Shown piece after piece: positions 25,508 to 64,000 of a DNA stretch of 64,000 nt. Made by a program: the position numbers and the translations under genes. Below the pieces are notes generated by a model that was given only the letters and a program-made list of their open reading frames with translations, did not search any database and was not told where the DNA came from. The stretch's first letter is position 1; each line of letters begins with the position of its first letter. The stretch comes from an uncultured virus (IMG/VR IMGVR_UViG_3300025674_006584) (taxonomy: Duplodnaviria; Heunggongvirae; Uroviricota; Caudoviricetes), in IMG/VR virus record IMGVR_UViG_3300025674_006584, one strand, 5' to 3'.

Positions 25508-26344
25508 TCATACTAATTCAGGTTCCATTTGTTCTTGTTGTAGTAGTTCGTATGCCCTTGCTAAACGAGTCATACCTATACCACCACCATATCTTGGGAA
25601 GAAGTCCATCCCTAAGAATTCTTCTAATTCTTTCTCCACTCTTTCTTTTCCAAATAGGTCAAATAACTTCTGACAATATCCACCATCTTCTATACTGTAG
25701 AACATATCTCTCATCTCTTCTACATTTGATGAACGTTCAGCAGAACCGATTGTCTCTTGACCGTATAGAATTACATCTACTTTATTGAATATACCTTCAC
25801 CTCTGTGTCTCATATTCCAGAAGGGGTTTGTTCTCCTTGGAAAATACTCTAATGATACTACTGAACCTTTCTCTTTCCACATTCTTGTCTCGTGTTCATC
25901 TTCTAATATTTCTACACCTCCATATTCTTCACATACCTCGTCGTATGTTTCATGTTTTGGGGTATCGAAACCTAAGTATTCAAGTAGTTGAGTCTCAAGT
26001 TTAATCATGTCTGCGATTGTACCTTTTGATTCAAACTCAAACATGGGGAAGATAAGTTCGTGACGACCGGGTATTGGGTCTTTCTCTTCTCTGTAAGAAG
26101 TGGAGACGCAGAACACACCTTCCCACTCAGGGTTTTTAAGTAGTTCATACTCCAACCACATCTGACCTGTTTGTGGTAATGGCCATGTCTCACCACAATA
26201 CTCAAATGTTTTTACTGAGTGTGGGTTTTCACATGCAGCTAAGATTGATAACCTTGATTGGGTTGGGACTTCCTTAAAGTTTTTACTTAAGAAAAATTCT
26301 CTCATCTTTTGGACGAGTTCATTGTAAACTGTTGTGTTTTTCAT
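25508..26344 (-). CDS. Class II aaRS (AsnRS/AspRS) catalytic-domain-only paralogue, possibly an asparagine synthetase
   Basis: LPQTGQMWLE, motif 2 SYREE..GRH..F..FEFE, ETIGSAER, motif 3 GGGIGMTRL; no anticodon-binding domain. Confidence 0.75.
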   Translation of the reverse strand: MKNTTVYNELVQKMREFFLSKNFKEVPTQSRLSILAACENPHSVKTFEYCGETWPLPQTGQMWLEYELLKNPEWEGVFCVSTSYREEKDPIPGRHELIFPMFEFESKGTIADMIKLETQLLEYLGFDTPKHETYDEVCEEYGGVEILEDEHETRMWKEKGSVVSLEYFPRRTNPFWNMRHRGEGIFNKVDVILYGQETIGSAERSSNVEEMRDMFYSIEDGGYCQKLFDLFGKERVEKELEEFLGMDFFPRYGGGIGMTRLARAYELLQQEQMEPELV

Positions 26345-26824: not shown

Positions 26825-27415
26825 ATGAAGGAACATAATGAACCCTACCAATATCTTTTGTTTATCTTCGGGGACTTCAAAGGAAAAGATAAAATCATAG
26901 AATTAATTGCATTACAATTATCATCATTCACAGACAAAAACAGTTATGTAAAATATAATTATGGAGACTATGGAATTGTAATGAATTTTCAATCACAATA
27001 TAGTTTTTATAATCTTAGGGACCATGTTCATATAGTTTTGGAAAAGGTAGCACCACAGTACTTTCTTTTTGAAAGACCAAAACATATGTATGCCTATATG
27101 CCACCTGAACTTAAATTAAATCTTTTTGATTTAAATGAGGAAAATATAAATATTGAGCAAAAAGATGTTAATTTTAAGGATATGATGAATATTATGGACA
27201 ACTTTTTGATTAATCTTACGTCTACATTATCACCTGAGAATATGTTATCAGAAGATGATATGGAACGTATGTTTGAAAATATTATGAATGAGGTAGATAG
27301 AAAAGAAGAAGTAAGACCTACAATTGATGATATCCTTGATAAAATTAGAGAAAAAGGTATCGAATCACTAAGTAACTCAGAAAAACAAATATTAGATGAA
27401 TACTCAAAAACTTAA
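26825..27415 (+). CDS. Hypothetical protein
   Basis: C-terminal IDDILDKIREKGIESLS..EK..L motif. Confidence 0.6.
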   Translation: MKEHNEPYQYLLFIFGDFKGKDKIIELIALQLSSFTDKNSYVKYNYGDYGIVMNFQSQYSFYNLRDHVHIVLEKVAPQYFLFERPKHMYAYMPPELKLNLFDLNEENINIEQKDVNFKDMMNIMDNFLINLTSTLSPENMLSEDDMERMFENIMNEVDRKEEVRPTIDDILDKIREKGIESLSNSEKQILDEYSKT

Positions 27416-28211
27416 TTTAATGTCTAACAGTAACCCTATCAATCAAGATGAAATTCAGATGTATCTGAAAGACATCCGTAAAATCAAAGTTATGACTCCT
27501 GAACGTGAAAAGGAGTTAGCAATAATAATATCTTCAGAAGATTGTACAGAACAACAAAAAGAGGAAGTATACCAAGAACTTCTTGAAGGTAACCTACGTT
27601 TTGTAATTACAGTTGCAAAACAATATCAAAATCAAGGATTAGACCTTAGTGATTTGATTGCTGAAGGTAACTACGGTCTTATGAAGGCTATTAAGAATTT
27701 TGATTGGGGTCGGGACTTACGTTTTATTTCATATGCTGTTTGGTGGATTAAACAATCAATCCTTCAGTCATTGAATGAGAACTCTCGTACAATTAGACTT
27801 CCAGTAAACGTAGTTCAAGACCTTCATAAAGCTAAAAAGGAGGCTCAAAAAGGTAACGGTGAGATTGATAGTAAATTTGCTATGTTACCAAAAACTACAG
27901 GTTTAGATAATCACATTAACGATGAAGGAGATACTCTTATCGACTTGATTGAAAATGAAAACTCAGCCAGTCCTGACGCATCATTTAACGACGGTAGTGC
28001 CCTTAAAATGAAGTTACAATGTATTATGAATACACTTGACGAAAGAGAAAAAGTTATCATAACAGACTACTATGGTATGACTGACACACCAAAGACTTTG
28101 GAGGAAATTGGTAACGATTTTGGTCTAACTAAAGAACGTGTAAGACAAATTAAAGAAAAGGCTTTACGTAAACTACGCAACGAAAGTAGTACACTTTTTG
28201 ATTACTTATGA
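27396..28211 (+). CDS. Sigma-70 family (RpoD/SigA-like) RNA polymerase sigma factor; start possibly 27420
   Basis: NLRFVITVAKQYQNQG, DLIAEGN.GL, FISYAVWWIKQ, TLEEIG..FGLTKERVRQI. Confidence 0.95.
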   Translation: MNTQKLNLMSNSNPINQDEIQMYLKDIRKIKVMTPEREKELAIIISSEDCTEQQKEEVYQELLEGNLRFVITVAKQYQNQGLDLSDLIAEGNYGLMKAIKNFDWGRDLRFISYAVWWIKQSILQSLNENSRTIRLPVNVVQDLHKAKKEAQKGNGEIDSKFAMLPKTTGLDNHINDEGDTLIDLIENENSASPDASFNDGSALKMKLQCIMNTLDEREKVIITDYYGMTDTPKTLEEIGNDFGLTKERVRQIKEKALRKLRNESSTLFDYL

Positions 28212-60248: not shown

Positions 60249-61729
60249 AAACAATACTAAAAGAAACGGGATTAAGAAATATCAAGGCGCTTGCAGATAG
60301 ATACAATAAAGCTAAGATATATTTCCACCAAGATTTAGATGGTGTAACTACTGCATTGGCAATGAAAAACTATTTGGAAAATAACGGAATAGAAGTTGTT
60401 GATGCAGAGATAATTCAATATGGTGACAAAGAGTTTGCCGTTAAAAAGTTAGATGCTCAAGGAGATACAATGCCAGTTTTGGTTGATTTCGCTCACGGTA
60501 AACCCATGTTTGTTGTTCATACTGACCACCACGATAGTCAAACTGGTGTGGAAGGAGACACATCTACATCATTCAGACCATCACGTTCAAACGTTGCAAC
60601 ACTCTCTCAGATAATGTCACCTACAGATATATTTCCATCTGAAGATATTACATTAATTTCTACAGTTGACTCAGCTGATTTTGCGAGGTTTGGATTAAAA
60701 CCTGAAGATATTATGAATTTTGTTTTTAAATTACAAAAAGATAAGAATTTACAACAAAACAAAATGGCATTAGGATTAGCCACTAACAAACTATTGTTAG
60801 CTTTTAAAAATAAACCTGGTTTCTTAGAAGAGTTGGTAATGACATCAGAACCATCTTTAATGAATATATTTCAAAACATTAATAGAATTGCTAAAAGAGA
60901 AAATTTAGCCTTCCAAGACAGACTTGAAAAAGGTTTAGAATTAAATAAATGGGGTAAACCAAATAGAAAGCCTTATGCATCACCTGAAGAAATGTCTGCA
61001 AATCAAAAAGATTATGTAGAGAAACAAGCGGAAAGTGATAAAGTATATGTTGATGACGGTATTATAGTACAGTATGGAGGTGGTTCTATGTTTAAACCTG
61101 GTTCATATGACAGGTACACCCCATTTAAGAATAACCCTGATGCTGATTTCTTAGTTATTGCATGGCCTATGGGTTTAGTACAGGCAAGTTGTAACCCATT
61201 TAAAAGTGAAAGAGAATTGAAGGGTGTAAACTTAGGTGAGATAGCACAGGAAGTTTTAAGTAAATGGGAAGGACAGCTAAAAGATAAGATTATACCATTA
61301 TCAACAATAAAATGGATTTCTGAATCAGGTAAATCTTTCGACGAAGAGTCAGTAGGATTTACCAATGCAGATTTAGAAGCATTTTATGGGGACAAAGTAC
61401 GTTCGATGGAAGGTGGTGAACAATATATGGATAAGTTAAAAGATATAATGAATAAACCTAATAATGAACTTACTGAAAATGAATGGGGAATATTGGATAA
61501 GTTAGGTGTCCCTGCTTGGGAAATGATTCAGGCTAATTCAGGAGGACATAAATGTATTACAAATATTTCGGCACTTAATTATTTTGGTAGAAGTAAAAGA
61601 CCACCACTACCTGATATTAAAAGAGGTAAGAAAGAAGGTGATTCACCATATGTGAAGTTTACCAAAATGATACAAAAAAGATTTGTTGAATTATTAAAAC
61701 AAAAAATACAAGAAAGTAAATCAAATTAA
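60245..61729 (+). CDS. DHH-family phosphoesterase-like protein
   Basis: FHQDLDGV, LVDF, HTDHH, C-terminal GGH. Confidence 0.7.
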   Translation: MKTILKETGLRNIKALADRYNKAKIYFHQDLDGVTTALAMKNYLENNGIEVVDAEIIQYGDKEFAVKKLDAQGDTMPVLVDFAHGKPMFVVHTDHHDSQTGVEGDTSTSFRPSRSNVATLSQIMSPTDIFPSEDITLISTVDSADFARFGLKPEDIMNFVFKLQKDKNLQQNKMALGLATNKLLLAFKNKPGFLEELVMTSEPSLMNIFQNINRIAKRENLAFQDRLEKGLELNKWGKPNRKPYASPEEMSANQKDYVEKQAESDKVYVDDGIIVQYGGGSMFKPGSYDRYTPFKNNPDADFLVIAWPMGLVQASCNPFKSERELKGVNLGEIAQEVLSKWEGQLKDKIIPLSTIKWISESGKSFDEESVGFTNADLEAFYGDKVRSMEGGEQYMDKLKDIMNKPNNELTENEWGILDKLGVPAWEMIQANSGGHKCITNISALNYFGRSKRPPLPDIKRGKKEGDSPYVKFTKMIQKRFVELLKQKIQESKSN

Positions 61730-62077
61730 AGAAAAGGAGACAGTGTCTCCTTTTTTAATACCTAATTTTTTACAAGTACCACCAGCAACTTCTAAAACCT
61801 CACTACCAAAACCCTTATAAGAAACACAATTATATTTTTGATTACATGGAGGACAATCATGATGAATCTCATTTATAGTACCTTTATTAATTATTATTAT
61901 GTCCAATGGTATAATACAGTTATACATCCAAAAACTTTGTTCAGTGGATTCTGGCATAATAAAAAACATACCATTAAAATTTTCATCGAATCTTTTTTTC
62001 ATCATACCTTCAGATATTGAAGTGGGTGATGCACAAAGTTTGACTTTAAATATATTATTGTCTATTATTATTTTCAT
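61721..62077 (-). CDS. DUF192-family protein (start moved to 62077)
   Basis: GMFF, SFWM.N..IPLDII.I, VLEVAGG...LGIKKGD. Confidence 0.85.
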   Translation of the reverse strand: MKIIIDNNIFKVKLCASPTSISEGMMKKRFDENFNGMFFIMPESTEQSFWMYNCIIPLDIIIINKGTINEIHHDCPPCNQKYNCVSYKGFGSEVLEVAGGTCKKLGIKKGDTVSFSLI

Positions 62078-62103
62078 ATTTATAAATATATTGAAACAGT
62101 AAT

Positions 62104-62511
62104 ATGAAAAAATATGCAGGTATAATTGTAAGATGTAACAATAAAGTTTTGTTATGTAAAAGAAATAATGAAGGCACACTACCTGGTTTTTGGTCTTGCC
62201 CTGGTGGTAAAATGGAAGATGGTGAGACATCTAAAGAAGCCGCTATAAGAGAATTTATGGAAGAAACAGACTTACCAATCTACGGTAAAATCGATTTTGC
62301 TGCTGCGATAAAAAGATACACTAGAGATGGACAGACAGTTAAAGGTTTAATGTATTGTTATTTACTGGATGTTGAAGAAGAAGTATATCCTGATTTGGAT
62401 AATGCTATAGATGGTGATGAACACATAGAATGTGGGTACTATGATAAAGACAACTTACCTACACCGATGACTAAACAATTTAATAAACTATTAAATATAA
62501 TATTAAAATGA
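62104..62511 (+). CDS. NUDIX hydrolase
   Basis: PGGKMEDGETSKEAAIREFMEET Nudix box. Confidence 0.9.
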   Translation: MKKYAGIIVRCNNKVLLCKRNNEGTLPGFWSCPGGKMEDGETSKEAAIREFMEETDLPIYGKIDFAAAIKRYTRDGQTVKGLMYCYLLDVEEEVYPDLDNAIDGDEHIECGYYDKDNLPTPMTKQFNKLLNIILK

Positions 62512-62726
62512 AAAACAAATTATTCGACGCTTTAGAGAAAAAATATGAAGCAATCAAAAGTGAATGTGAAGCAACATTAGAGGTGTATTTTAATAATCCT
62601 ATGGGTATTGGAGAACATCCAGGAATTATTGAAGAAATGGATAAATTATTTGAGAGATACGCAACCGCTGAAGGTAATTTAGAGGTCTTGAGAAAGAATT
62701 TTTCCGAATACGATACAGAAGAATAA
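62508..62726 (+). CDS. Conserved small phage protein
   Basis: YFNNPMGIGEHP motif. Confidence 0.6.
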   Translation: MKNKLFDALEKKYEAIKSECEATLEVYFNNPMGIGEHPGIIEEMDKLFERYATAEGNLEVLRKNFSEYDTEE

Positions 62727-62765
62727 AAAAGTTTTGTTTTTAGTTGAATAATTAAAACTTTTTTG

Positions 62766-62868
62766 TATATTTGTAAAACTTTTGACAGATAAGGGTATAT
62801 TTATATACTACAATCAGAAAAAAAGTTTAAAAAAAATTTGACAGATTGAAAAATATGTTTTAAATTTG
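62766..62868 (+). promoter_or_regulatory. Stacked promoters upstream of the large ncRNA
   Basis: TATATTTG 62766-62773; TATTTAT 62798-62804; TTTG(ACA) 62837-62843 with TAAATTTG 62861-62868 (20-nt spacer). Confidence 0.7.
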
Positions 62869-62872
62869 TCAA

Positions 62873-63715
62873 ACGTTCTTTGAAAATATTAATGACGAAC
62901 CTTCACTGAAAGAGTTTCCTAAAAAGATTAACCCCCTTTTTTCATTCAAAAACAGTGAACAAGTAGTTATCGGTGGTTTAGCATCGTTAGATAACCCTGG
63001 CAACAGGACTAAAGGGACAGAATGGGATTTAGCAATCCTTGGAAGTTCGCAGTCGTATGGCTGACAACTAAACAAAGTATCTACGACCCGTACCTCAAGG
63101 GCAACTGCTGAGGGGTTAGGGTTCATCTGAATGAGTGGACATTCGGGTGTGAGATGGAGACATCAACAGGAGAAGATACAGGTGACGGTTCGACACTCAC
63201 TGCTATGGGTTGTAGAGCTGGGTACCAGTCTGAGGGGTTACCTCAGGGACGAGTGGAAACTCGGAACCTACCGTAGTCCTGACTGACCGTTAACTTGCAG
63301 GTTAACAGAGAGGTGTGAAGCATTCTGTACTCCAAAGGTATGGACCTTCTCCCGAAGCACATCTTTCATAAATCCACATTTGCTAATTTTAATCTAAATT
63401 AAAACAAGCGAAAGTCTTCGGGCGTTGATGACGAAAGGTGTCTAACACTTCGGACCTTAGTCAACGAAGTCATCCCTTGAACCGCAAGTTCTCGGATGTC
63501 GATAATGAAACAACTCGTGGGTTGGCCGACCCTTAGTGAGACCGCAAGTCTTGAGAGATTGAAGTAGTTGTCGAGTAGTTATCAACGATACGAGTGGTAG
63601 CCGTTAGTTACCGACACTGACTCGATACTCCTGTCAATGGAGTGGATACGTGGGGAATTATCTAACTATAATCCCACAAAAGACGAGTTGTCAAACGTGT
63701 AATCTCAGCGTCCTT
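62873..63715 (+). ncRNA. Large structured non-coding RNA, GOLLD-like
   Basis: ~840 nt without a credible ORF, GC-richer than its flanks, many hairpins, long-range pairings, AT-rich central linker; the 3' motif series matches my recollection of GOLLD (not searched). Confidence 0.75.
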
Positions 63716-63748
63716 AACCCCCATATATATAAAATATATATCTTCCTT

Positions 63749-63778
63749 AACCTCAGCTGTAGTGGCTGAGGTTTTTTT
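63749..63778 (+). terminator. Intrinsic terminator of the ncRNA
   Basis: aacctcagct-gtagt-ggctgaggtt followed by a T-run. Confidence 0.85.
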
Positions 63779-63800
63779 CTTTTATAGATATTTATAACTA

Positions 63801-64000
63801 ATGAAAGACCTAATTAGAAAAATACTAAGAGAAGAATACTCAGGTACTATTGATTATTCATATGATGATATGAGCAAGGCATTTAAGGATGTATTCTCAG
63901 ATTATAAAAGAGATGAGACAGCCAAATATCTTGAAGGTATAGTAGGTATACATACTATAGGTGAACGTATGGGTAAAAAACACATTGATTGGTCAATAAT
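63801..64000 (+). CDS. Hypothetical protein, 3' partial, with ILREE leader
   Basis: MKDLIRKILREEY...; open to the window end; TATTTAT at 63789-63795. Confidence 0.65.
   Translation, partial: MKDLIRKILREEYSGTIDYSYDDMSKAFKDVFSDYKRDETAKYLEGIVGIHTIGERMGKKHIDWSI

Follow-up and report, generated by a model that had tools for sequence, protein, structure and literature searches.

A predicted full-length GOLLD RNA gene in an uncultured phage of a lineage with genomes near 300 kb

Results

The locus and its phage

We analyzed a stretch of 64,000 nucleotides from an uncultured virus assigned to the Caudoviricetes (IMG/VR IMGVR_UViG_3300025674_006584), hereafter the window, which holds phage replication and nucleotide-metabolism genes as judged by PHROGs matches. 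A 270-kb IMG/VR contig is collinear with the window (the primases are 89% identical and a 917-aa protein 76%), and the distances to the element described here, a GOLLD RNA gene, agree between the two. IMG/VR contigs carrying relatives of the element reach 297 kb, and a related contig of that size is rated 99% complete. These comparisons show the window phage to be one of a lineage whose genomes measure about 300 kb. A first-pass annotation of the window, made without database searches, had spoken of a jumbo phage, and this label is supported indirectly, through the 270-kb collinear contig and the 297-kb relative. No close cultured phage was found by tblastn with three window proteins. The best identities in these searches were at most 29% for the window primase and about 38% for the sigma factor, and the tRNA-ligase-like protein reached 47-56% identity with Prochlorococcus myophages and with uncultured phage records of 484-735 kb. 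Comparison of 62700-63800 with 50,697 phage records by blastn in distant mode gave no match.

The host is probably an aquatic member of the Bacteroidota, judging from the promoter type only. The first-pass annotation had also placed the phage with Bacteroidota and the promoter type fits this assignment. A 16-mer scan of bacterial and archaeal genomes yielded no homologue among the 120 matches listed, where about 280 chance matches are expected by our own arithmetic. As positive control, the scan matched 89 of 97 viral loci.

Two protein-coding frames precede the element on the same strand (Table 1). Of the 74 related loci with 700 nt or more of upstream DNA, 56 have a NUDIX homologue upstream in the same orientation. 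The 72-aa ORF is present at 36 of 97 loci. A neighbouring or embedded tRNA is frequent in GOLLD, though not obligatory. None is present in the 64-kb window, linker included, as had been noticed at first sight, and none was found within 1-1.2 kb at any of 97 related loci or at any of the 26 loci of the window subtype, as opposed to 24 of 91 other GOLLD-motif loci that do have one. Three large relatives carry tRNA clusters at a distance of 36-47 kb from GOLLD.

Extent of the gene, promoter and terminator

The element occupies the widest gap between ORFs in a crude gene map of the window (62727-63800, 1074 nt) and its GC content of 0.448 (62873-63711) exceeds that of the flanks (0.286) and of the whole window (0.317), in keeping with its earlier description as the largest non-coding stretch and as GC-richer than its surroundings. 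Short ORFs of 85 aa on the minus strand and 51 aa on the plus strand occur within it. On the plus strand, the complete gene extends from about 62873 to 63711 and measures about 839 nt. No ORF is conserved among the relatives, the longest in each varying between 26 and 122 aa.

Promoters and a terminator had been proposed as boundaries, and we recovered promoter-like sites at 62782-62809 and 62838-62866 as well as a terminator-like hairpin followed by a T run. The motif TAnnTTTG is present in all 37 distinct upstream stretches of relatives, and the complete arrangement TTTG-N18-22-TAnnTTTG in 32 of the 37. In Flavobacterium the -7 box is positioned at -12 to -5 (PMC9723704), which would place the transcription start near 62873. 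Sequence similar to the more distal promoter-like stretch was detected in the four closest relatives. At the other end, relatives retain the terminator stem (helix 32), in which three pairs show changes on both sides. A single RNA of about 840-900 nt would be transcribed from this predicted Bacteroidota-type sigma-A promoter.

Table 1. Features of the predicted GOLLD locus, in window coordinates
Feature	Position	Strand	Remarks
NUDIX hydrolase gene	62104-62511	+	PHROGs match; upstream of GOLLD
72-aa ORF	62508-62726	+	phrog_1811; upstream of GOLLD
Upstream promoter-like stretch	62766-62809	+	TATATTTG 62766-62773; TTGACA-N16-TATACT 62782-62809
Putative promoter	62837-62868	+	TTTG 62837-62840 in TTGACA (62838-62843), 20-nt spacer, -7 box TAAATTTG 62861-62868
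Predicted 5' end and conserved single-stranded tail	62873-62891	+	GUUCUUUGAAA 62875-62885; in most of 47 relatives
Folded 5' leader	62892-62970	+	Closing helix around hairpins and C-rich motif AACCCCC
GOLLD 5' domain	62971-63307	+	Opening hairpin 62971-62986; GNRA hairpin 62996-63007, loop GCAA 63000-63003
GOLLD 3' domain	63308-63711	+	RF02032 match; helices 17-31 covary
L14-type loop	63330-63338	+	CUCCAAAGG; conserved adenosines 63334-63336
AT-rich unpaired linker (J13/15, published numbering)	63367-63420	+	Ends in AAGCGAAAG, near-conserved GC
Long-range helix	63423-63587	+	CGUUGAUGAC 63423-63432 with GUUAUCAACG 63578-63587; Rfam bracketed helix
L20 loop CGCAA	63483-63487	+	CGCAA 41, GGCAA 5, UGCAA 1 of 47
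L21a loop UGGCCG	63523-63528	+	Self-complementary centre GGCC 63524-63527
L21b loop CGCAA	63543-63547	+	CGCAA in 47/47
3' tail and intrinsic terminator	63712-63780	+	Hairpin 63749-63773, T run after

Assignment to the GOLLD family

GOLLD RNAs are among the largest non-coding RNAs of bacteria and phages and form cages made of RNA only. The Rfam GOLLD model RF02032 matched the 3' half of the element with 301 bits against a cut-off of 150 (E 3.7e-85), the alignment spanned model positions 1-416 of 416 without truncation, and no other Rfam family exceeded its own cut-off anywhere in the 64-kb window. Nothing in the window reached gathering score for ROOL, OLE, RNase P, tmRNA or group I and II introns, and a relaxed scan of 62700-63850 gave none of them at E ≤1 either. 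A PsrR1 match over the terminator in the relaxed scan was sub-threshold (23.7 bits versus 42, E 0.078) and was set aside as a chance match.

On this sequence evidence we regard membership of the predicted RNA in the GOLLD family as virtually certain, and the best explanation overall, itself very probable, is that 62873-63711 (+) constitutes a complete GOLLD RNA gene. GOLLD is a known RNA family and the locus is a further member of it, not a new kind of RNA. The first-pass annotation had suggested GOLLD or a relative and had proposed an Rfam scan as a check. The full-length RF02032 match bears the suggestion out, with none of ROOL, OLE, RNase P and introns matched, and the series GAGTAG, GAGTGGT, GATACT, AGTGGATA, GTAATCTCAG, cited at the time in favour of GOLLD, aligns to conserved positions of the GOLLD model. 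The proposed length of about 840 nt, the two-domain layout and the phage setting all agree with our analysis. In the literature searched, GOLLD RNA was unconnected with any Bacteroid- term, and co-mentions of GOLLD and "jumbo" were incidental, judging by titles.

Relatives and covariation

A 16-nt motif of the element (63181-63196, in the 5' domain) was found at 90 IMG/VR loci, of which 85 are homologues of the whole element. The other five (L043, L044, L056, L080 and L084) are chance matches. L080 is the 275-kb contig G003, which was excluded from all statements on relatives. Three of the seven loci of the first 17-mer scan were chance matches as well. The subtype, represented by 85 IMG/VR loci and by sequencing runs of 15 studies, is widespread in aquatic samples. 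The 47 distinct full-length IMG/VR relatives measure 886-919 nt and are 68-84% identical to the window. The 16-nt motif is identical in all 47 sequences, an invariance that is partly circular because the sequences were gathered with it.

At the 196 consensus pairs, 99.2% of cells are paired, as compared with 90.5% in shuffles and 35-42% with slid partners. Pairs changed on both sides number 84, versus 57.5 in shuffles, and none of 500 shuffles reached any of five covariation measures. The first-pass annotation had named covariation among phage homologues as a further check, and the pairing is indeed kept by compensatory changes in the 47 relatives. When folded as a single sequence, the plus strand gave -249 kcal/mol with a z-score of -2.38, as against a z-score of -0.94 for the minus strand.

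Most of the hairpins that had been read from the window by eye hold. Compensatory changes in the 47 relatives were found for cctg-gcaa-cagg, gttaac..gttaac, gaac-cgcaa-gttc and agac-cgcaa-gtct, and the stem of cagtc-gtat-ggctg is kept, albeit in the shorter form CAG/CTG (helix 6). Two hairpins are not family-wide: cgagt-ggaa-actcg lies in a variable insertion missing from most relatives, and ctgagg..cctcag can form in the window, but the family instead pairs GGGGU with an AGUCC further on (helix 14, in which two pairs show changes on both sides). The two long-range helices proposed at the same time exist as string complements without covariation support. In caggacta/tagtcctg, 84.8% of cells pair, not a single pair is changed on both sides and two positions are unpaired in 16 and 19 of the 47 sequences, while gggcgttga/tcagcgtcc shows one double-change cell. 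Shuffles reached the values observed for these two pairings in 360-500 of 500 trials, and both pairings overlap covarying helices (3, 14, 31, and 20).

The 5' half and the leader of about 100 nt are shown by this comparison to be conserved, their predicted pairing being maintained by compensatory changes. Helices 2-16 are 94.7-100% paired, and in each of them one or more pairs have changed on both sides. The leader is closed by a helix between AUGAC (62892-62896) and GUUAU (62966-62970), and single-sequence folds of distinct leaders have a counterpart of this helix, built from unrelated sequences, in 33 of 33 cases. Among 91 loci of other GOLLD subtypes, 33 were matched by a model of the first module of the 5' domain (62971-63063). 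These matches are all in the same orientation as the 3' motif, which they precede by 730-770 nt, and the Rfam GOLLD 3' domain was found downstream, with 231-330 bits, in all 20 module-bearing loci tested. It is in this first module only that the 5' domain is recognizably like other subtypes.

In the 3' domain, helices 17-31 are 96-100% paired. The Rfam long-range helix (helix 20) consists of nine pairs, is 100% paired with three pairs changed on both sides, and encloses the hairpins of L20, L21a and L21b. The AT-rich linker that had been noticed at 63367-63407 belongs to a linker that the Rfam alignment leaves unpaired. This linker is variable in length, and in six relatives it contains an additional hairpin.

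Contact loops

The closest structural reference is env-38, a GOLLD RNA of 833 nt from a marine metagenome that was solved by cryo-EM as a 14-mer with D7 symmetry (Kretsch et al. 2025, PMC12286853; PDB 9MEE, as given in PMC12990946). There, A447 and A448 form intermolecular bridge B6 (PMC12286853, Supplementary Table 2), L20 kisses J13/15 of the adjacent chain (bridge B7), L21a kisses its own copy across the half-shells (bridge B8) and L21b is a symmetric kissing loop, B9 (PMC12286853). The L14-type loop of the window, which we equated by eye with the A447/A448 loop, has AAA in 47 of 47 relatives, and the GNRA loop is equally constant (47/47). For L21a, the centre reads GGCC in 41, GGCU in one, AGCU in one, CGCA in two and AGCA in two of the 47 sequences, so that a GC core is kept in all of them and a self-complementary tetranucleotide in 43. 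Because the contact loops are nearly invariant, almost no covariation can come from them, and the variation that speaks for symmetric kissing is confined to the single GGCU and the single AGCU variant of L21a.

RNA-library contigs

Four metatranscriptome studies supplied contigs over 62901-63722, and one RNA-library contig of 811 nt spans both domains and the linker. Such contigs are no proof of transcription or of the strand and ends of a transcript, and strand, level and timing are not readable from them. The flanks (61500-62843 and 63768-64000) are almost without cover in four RNA runs. This is no evidence for a discrete transcript, since the runs were found with the element itself, the contigs include relatives with divergent flanks and no DNA run was compared. 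Three runs have contigs ending at 63708-63709, in one case with adapter-like letters after the end, and in the fourth run the end is at 63722. At best this hints weakly at a 3' end ahead of the terminator. GOLLD expression reportedly rises during phage lysis (PMC12286853).

Discussion

A proposed RNA cage and alternative readings

By analogy with the solved structures, the window RNA is likely to form a homo-oligomeric cage; this is expected because the loops that join the solved GOLLD cage are conserved here. The 5' domain would fold as a cap and the 3' domain, separately, as a ring. Copies would then bind each other via the GNRA loop, the L14 adenosines and the GC-centred L20, L21a and L21b, and this binding would close a hollow cage around the AT-rich linker, as in env-38. 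During lytic growth a macromolecule may be held or sequestered in it. This is our guess, preferred over tRNA storage, which is disfavoured by the lack of a tRNA in or beside the window subtype.

The assignment of a specific 14-mer by the same analogy is tentative, with the chances standing a little below even. GOLLD oligomers comprise 10, 12 or 14 copies, and the stoichiometry of those solved depends on the helices present (PMC12990946). The window subtype has a folded leader of about 100 nt that is missing from the env-38 construct, and its 5' domain resembles other subtypes in the first module only. An RNA that belongs to GOLLD and yet stays monomeric, forms an open or other oligomer such as a 10- or 12-mer, or depends on protein is unlikely, albeit the most serious of the alternatives, and the extra leader and distinct 5' domain might then have another role. 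Against it speak the presence and conservation of the GC-centred loops of P21a and P21b, of L20, of the L14 adenosines and of the GNRA loop, and also the length of about 839 nt and the linker position, both of which resemble env-38.

Much less probable, to the point of being hard to sustain, is a role of the stretch as long structured 5' leader, or as cis-regulatory RNA, for the gene that follows at 63801. That ORF has the same orientation and its ATG comes only about 20 nt after the T run, but a conserved intrinsic terminator lies in between, GOLLD is a known stand-alone RNA family (PMC12286853), and the 66-aa fragment of the downstream ORF found no match in related loci by tblastn (E 1e-5). 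Another large RNA class (ROOL, OLE, RNase P, tmRNA or a group I or II intron) or a small-protein gene, which size, GC-richness and the 85-aa and 51-aa ORFs could suggest, has a negligible chance, as nothing else in Rfam matched at E ≤1 apart from the sub-threshold PsrR1 on the terminator, the ORFs are not conserved and substitutions track base pairing.

Returning to the GOLLD gene proper, our data document a coherent aquatic subtype with full-length boundaries, a conserved promoter and terminator, and a covariation-supported 5' domain and leader. Compared with typical GOLLD loci, the tRNA is absent, a NUDIX gene is usually upstream and the folded 5' leader is additional. The locus could be the type example of a separate, tRNA-uncoupled GOLLD lineage in jumbo phages of about 300 kb with aquatic hosts of Bacteroidota type, distinguished by the usual upstream NUDIX gene, the extra folded leader and wide presence in aquatic RNA libraries. 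We consider this extended reading improbable at present. If it were true and the RNA formed cages, tRNA storage would be excluded as the job of this lineage and a different cargo, or a role linked to RNA 5'-end metabolism, would come into play; comparison with tRNA-linked subtypes could then narrow down the purpose of GOLLD cages.

Comparison with known systems

The window RNA and env-38 match the same Rfam 3' model, are of nearly equal length and share an unpaired linker slightly past the start of the 3' region, the P21a and P21b hairpins, a GNRA loop near the 5' end, L14 adenosines and CGCAA-type loops. By eye, they also open in the same order of a hairpin, an A-rich stretch, a GNRA hairpin and AAAG-G. 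Beyond this opening module, the 5' domains show no obvious likeness in sequence (again by eye), the extra folded leader of about 100 nt is found in the window RNA alone, and L21a is CGCAA in env-38 and UGGCCG in the window. In addition, env-38 sits downstream of tRNA-Met (PMC12286853), whereas the window gene has no tRNA in 64 kb.

The Streptococcus agalactiae GOLLD, a 12-mer of 700 nt (PDB 9L0R), belongs to the same family and likewise has cap-forming 5' and ring-forming 3' domains in a cage; as described in PMC12990946, it is without P9, P11a-c and P21b. The window RNA is about 140 nt longer and has a P21b-type hairpin, and the presumed host phylum is different. ROOL and OLE resemble the window RNA as large ornate RNAs, and ROOL shares with GOLLD the RNA-only cage and the association with phages (PMC12286853). 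Both differ in that sequence and fold are unrelated, and neither was matched in Rfam at E ≤1.

GOLLD RNAs of Mycobacterium and Mycolicibacterium are said to have been placed in tRNA arrays by Morgado et al. in 2020. They belong to the family and have a mobile-element or phage-linked setting, but differ from the window gene by their location within tRNA arrays, one of them having a tRNA-Phe inside J13/15 (PMC12990946). The contrast between the window subtype and such tRNA-embedded GOLLDs provides a useful constraint on hypotheses like tRNA storage.

A GOLLD RNA gene in the largest intergenic gap

When the whole window was searched with Rfam 15, GOLLD (RF02032), a family of giant phage-borne non-coding RNAs, was the sole family above its gathering score. 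The match reached 301 bits (cut-off 150, E 3.7e-85) and was not truncated, spanning model positions 1-416 of 416, and the motif series listed in the first-pass annotation aligned with conserved positions of the model. The element had been proposed to be GOLLD or a relative; it is correctly identified as a member of this known family, which the standard Rfam model detects with a twofold margin. A relaxed scan of 62700-63850 with E values up to 1 gave nothing further apart from PsrR1 over the terminator, which at 23.7 bits against 42 was sub-threshold and was read as a chance hit.

The described layout was borne out as well. A crude gene map placed the element in the largest gap between ORFs (1074 nt), and its G+C content was 0.448 over 62873-63711 higher than the 0.317 of the window and the 0.286 of the flanks. 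The element is preceded by two promoter-like sites, and a terminator-like hairpin of 11 pairs is followed by a T run. ARAGORN found no tRNA and no tmRNA in the entire 64 kb; the first-pass annotation had seen no tRNA in the linker or next to it. No conserved ORF was present among the relatives, the longest per relative being 26-122 aa.

Features of the GOLLD locus and of other genes in the window
Feature	Position	Strand	Remarks
278-aa protein	25508-26344	-	phrog_29758, E 1.7e-97
Sigma-70-family factor	27396-28211	+	phrog_351, E 2e-54
NUDIX hydrolase gene and 72-aa ORF (phrog_1811)	62104-62726	+	same strand as GOLLD, just upstream; related loci L008-L097
Gap between ORFs	62727-63800		
Promoter-like sites	62782-62809; 62838-62866		
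Promoter	62837-62868	+	TTTG, 20-nt spacer, then TAAATTTG; immediately 5' of element
Leader closing helix	62892-62896 / 62966-62970	+	AUGAC / GUUAU; single-sequence fold
First module	62971-63063		
16-mer of 5' half	63181-63196		
Rfam GOLLD match	63308-63711	+	
Long-range helix, 3' half	63423-63432 / 63578-63587		CGUUGAUGAC / GUUAUCAACG
Tail, Rfam match to terminator	63712-63748		CUUCCUUAACC directly before terminator stem
Terminator-like hairpin	63749-63773		

PMC9723704 describes TAnnTTTG as the flavobacterial sigma-A -7 box. Since this box occupies positions -12 to -5, transcription would start near 62873, so that the gene would measure about 839 nt when counted up to where the Rfam match ends and about 908 nt when counted up to the terminator T run. 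TAnnTTTG was present in all 37 distinct upstream stretches of relatives and TTTG-N18-22-TAnnTTTG in 32, with a spacer of 20 nt in 30 of these; 31 of the 37 also fitted TTGAC[AG]-N16-18-TAnnT. A leader of about 100 nt separates the putative start from the first shared module. All 33 distinct leaders formed a closing helix, made up of unrelated sequences, in single-sequence folds, which do not amount to formal covariation. In the tail, the first part is variable and the relatives retain the stretch before the terminator stem; RNA-library contigs mostly end upstream of that stretch.

Covariation among 47 relatives

Searching IMG/VR for a 17-mer of the 3' end gave seven loci, four of them on contigs where GOLLD scored about 300 bits, and alignment of these four contigs with the window revealed a common unit of promoter region, 5' half, linker, 3' half and terminator. 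The 16-mer of the 5' half was present in 90 IMG/VR contigs, 85 of which carried whole-element homologues; the other five were chance matches, including locus L080 on the 275-kb contig G003, which was excluded. The 72 full-length copies yielded 47 distinct sequences of 886-919 nt, with 68-84% identity to the window and a mean of 78% to one another. Because the set was collected using a 5'-domain motif, the invariance of the 16-mer is partly circular.

The RNAalifold consensus for the 47 sequences contained 196 predicted pairs, of which 84 had changed on both sides; the corresponding number was 57.5 for shuffles and 12-19 after sliding the partners by 1-3 columns. Standard pairing was found in 99.2% of cells (shuffles 90.5%, slid 35-42%) and the covariation score was 0.327 (shuffles 0.155). 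None of 500 shuffles attained the observed value on any of five measures. In the 5' half, 15 helices (consensus helices 2-16) were 94.7-100% paired with at least one double-changed pair in each, and the 3' half recovered the Rfam helices, including a long-range one. The plus-strand fold was better than shuffles (z -2.38, 0/20 as good); the minus-strand fold was no better (z -0.94, 3/20 as good).

The individual hairpins named in the first-pass annotation fared unevenly. Four of seven, namely the GCAA hairpin, gttaac..gttaac and both CGCAA hairpins, are retained via compensatory changes. For cagtc..ggctg a shorter CAG/CTG stem is retained but the full stem is not, cgagt-ggaa-actcg sits within an insertion absent from most relatives, and for ctgagg..cctcag the family supports a competing alternative pairing. 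Neither suggested long-range complement was supported: caggacta/tagtcctg had no double changes, with 16 and 19 of the 47 sequences unpaired at two positions, and gggcgttga/tcagcgtcc had one double-change cell. Of 500 shuffle trials, 360-500 matched their observed values, and each of the two complements overlaps covarying helices.

A family-wide module at the start of the 5' domain

The remainder of the element was studied separately because the Rfam model is limited to the conserved 3' domain. Three 3' motifs combined in one degenerate pattern matched at least 117 IMG/VR loci; among the matches listed, 26 belonged to the window's subtype and 91 to others. Sequence profiles of the 5' half gave no strong match in the 91 other-subtype loci listed and weak matches in only four. 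With a covariance model built on the first module (94 positions, 17 pairs), 33 of these 91 were matched (E ≤0.01, 24-38.8 bits), in each case on the 3'-motif strand at a distance of 730-770 nt upstream of that motif, the corresponding distance in the window being 671 nt, and the Rfam GOLLD 3' domain was found at 231-330 bits in 20 of 20 tested loci with a first-module match among those listed. These matches and the GOLLD 3' domains downstream of them indicate that the 5' domain opens with a family-wide module. By eye, the solved 833-nt GOLLD RNA env-38, as given in Supplementary Table 4 of PMC12286853, has the same opening order as the window RNA: hairpin, A-rich stretch, GNRA hairpin and AAAG-G.

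Occurrence, phage and genomic context

The element or a near-identical sequence was present in 20 of the 24 sequencing runs listed, from 15 studies, six runs being metatranscriptomes; all were freshwater, estuarine, marine or aquaculture samples. The window RNA is a new GOLLD member belonging to a coherent aquatic subtype. Four RNA runs, each from a different study, yielded contigs that cover 62901-63722, and one of these contigs, 811 nt long (62913-63722), bridges both domains and the linker. Such contigs, which by themselves prove neither transcription, strand nor ends, would fit a single abundant RNA.

The window and the 270-kb phage contig G001 (rated 88% complete) are collinear, with GOLLD at matching distances, a primase 89% identical and a 917-aa protein 76% identical, and G002 (297 kb, 99% complete) is related at 67-69%; a jumbo phage, as the first-pass annotation proposed, can thus be soundly inferred, with a genome of about 300 kb. 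Further contigs with this GOLLD subtype measure 199, 169, 119 and 113 kb. PHROGs in the window comprise primase, exonuclease, SbcCD, dCMP deaminase, polynucleotide kinase, PRPP synthetase, a sigma factor, methyltransferases and a NUDIX hydrolase; none of the genes in the 64 kb was recognised as structural. The sigma-70-family factor is the phage's own gene, with best phage-collection matches about 34-38% identical. The 278-aa protein, in a window without a tRNA gene, shares 47-56% identity with the 'tRNA ligase' of Prochlorococcus myophages P-SSM2, P-SSM5 and P-SSM7 and, in the same range, with uncultured phage records of 484-735 kb.

TAnnTTTG occurs 132 times in the window (99 expected; 0/100 shuffles reach 132), and in non-coding DNA 21 times on the gene strand as opposed to twice on the other, six non-coding sites being preceded by TTTG 23-24 nt upstream. 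This pattern points to transcription of the Bacteroidota type and in that respect supports the putative Bacteroidota host proposed earlier. Six intergenic plus-strand sites in which about 19-20 nt separate TTTG from a downstream TAnnTTTG (20743, 22076, 24298, 40758, 45109 and 62861) follow the Bacteroidota sigma-A pattern and could provide a promoter map of the phage.

No tRNA was found within 1-1.2 kb of GOLLD in 97 related loci. Among the matches listed, a tRNA stood this close to GOLLD in 0/26 loci of the window's subtype versus 24/91 others. In the large phage contigs G001, G004 and G005, 36-47 kb separate the tRNA clusters from GOLLD; in G002 the distance is 252 kb (linear record). Of the 74 related loci whose flank was long enough, 56 carry a same-strand NUDIX gene 295-554 nt upstream of the RNA. 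The tRNA absence, the distance of the tRNA clusters and the NUDIX neighbour are differences of context from other GOLLDs, not of kind. Among listed loci of other subtypes, tRNAs flank GOLLD in 7 of 20 checked; in L267, L270 and L231 a tmRNA gene adjoins it on the opposite strand.

Comparison with the GOLLD cages

According to PMC12286853, env-38 forms a closed 14-mer with 5' domains as caps, 3' domains as rings and the linker disordered within the cage. Its intermolecular bridges include B1, an A-minor contact of a GNRA loop; B6, first 3' hairpin-loop adenosines docked in P21; B7, a kiss between L20 and J13/15; and B8 and B9, in which L21a and L21b, respectively, form symmetric GC kisses. The review PMC12990946 describes Streptococcus agalactiae GOLLD as a 12-mer without P21b and several 5' helices, its 3' domain by itself forming mostly 10-mers.

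Six relatives (L079, L063, L057, L050, L032, L069) have an extra short hairpin with a CCC/GGG-type stem (alignment A2, columns 562-580) in the otherwise unpaired AT-rich linker, the segment that in env-38 lies inside the cage.

The window RNA has equivalents of all the env-38 contact elements named above, conserved across the 47 sequences. The GNRA loop, the AAA of the L14-type loop and the CGCAA of L21b are found in 47/47, and L20 reads CGCAA in 41, GGCAA in five and UGCAA in one. L21a has a GC core in 47/47 and a self-complementary centre in 43 (GGCC 41, GGCU 1, AGCU 1), a series that a symmetric intermolecular kiss would allow and that rests on two sequences. Copies of the window RNA would join via the GNRA, L14-type, L20, L21a and L21b elements as in env-38. 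Because these equivalents are present and conserved, the RNA probably forms a homo-oligomeric cage, with the env-38 type as the likeliest form. The extra leader could alter its geometry, and we give slightly less than even chances to a cage of 14 copies.
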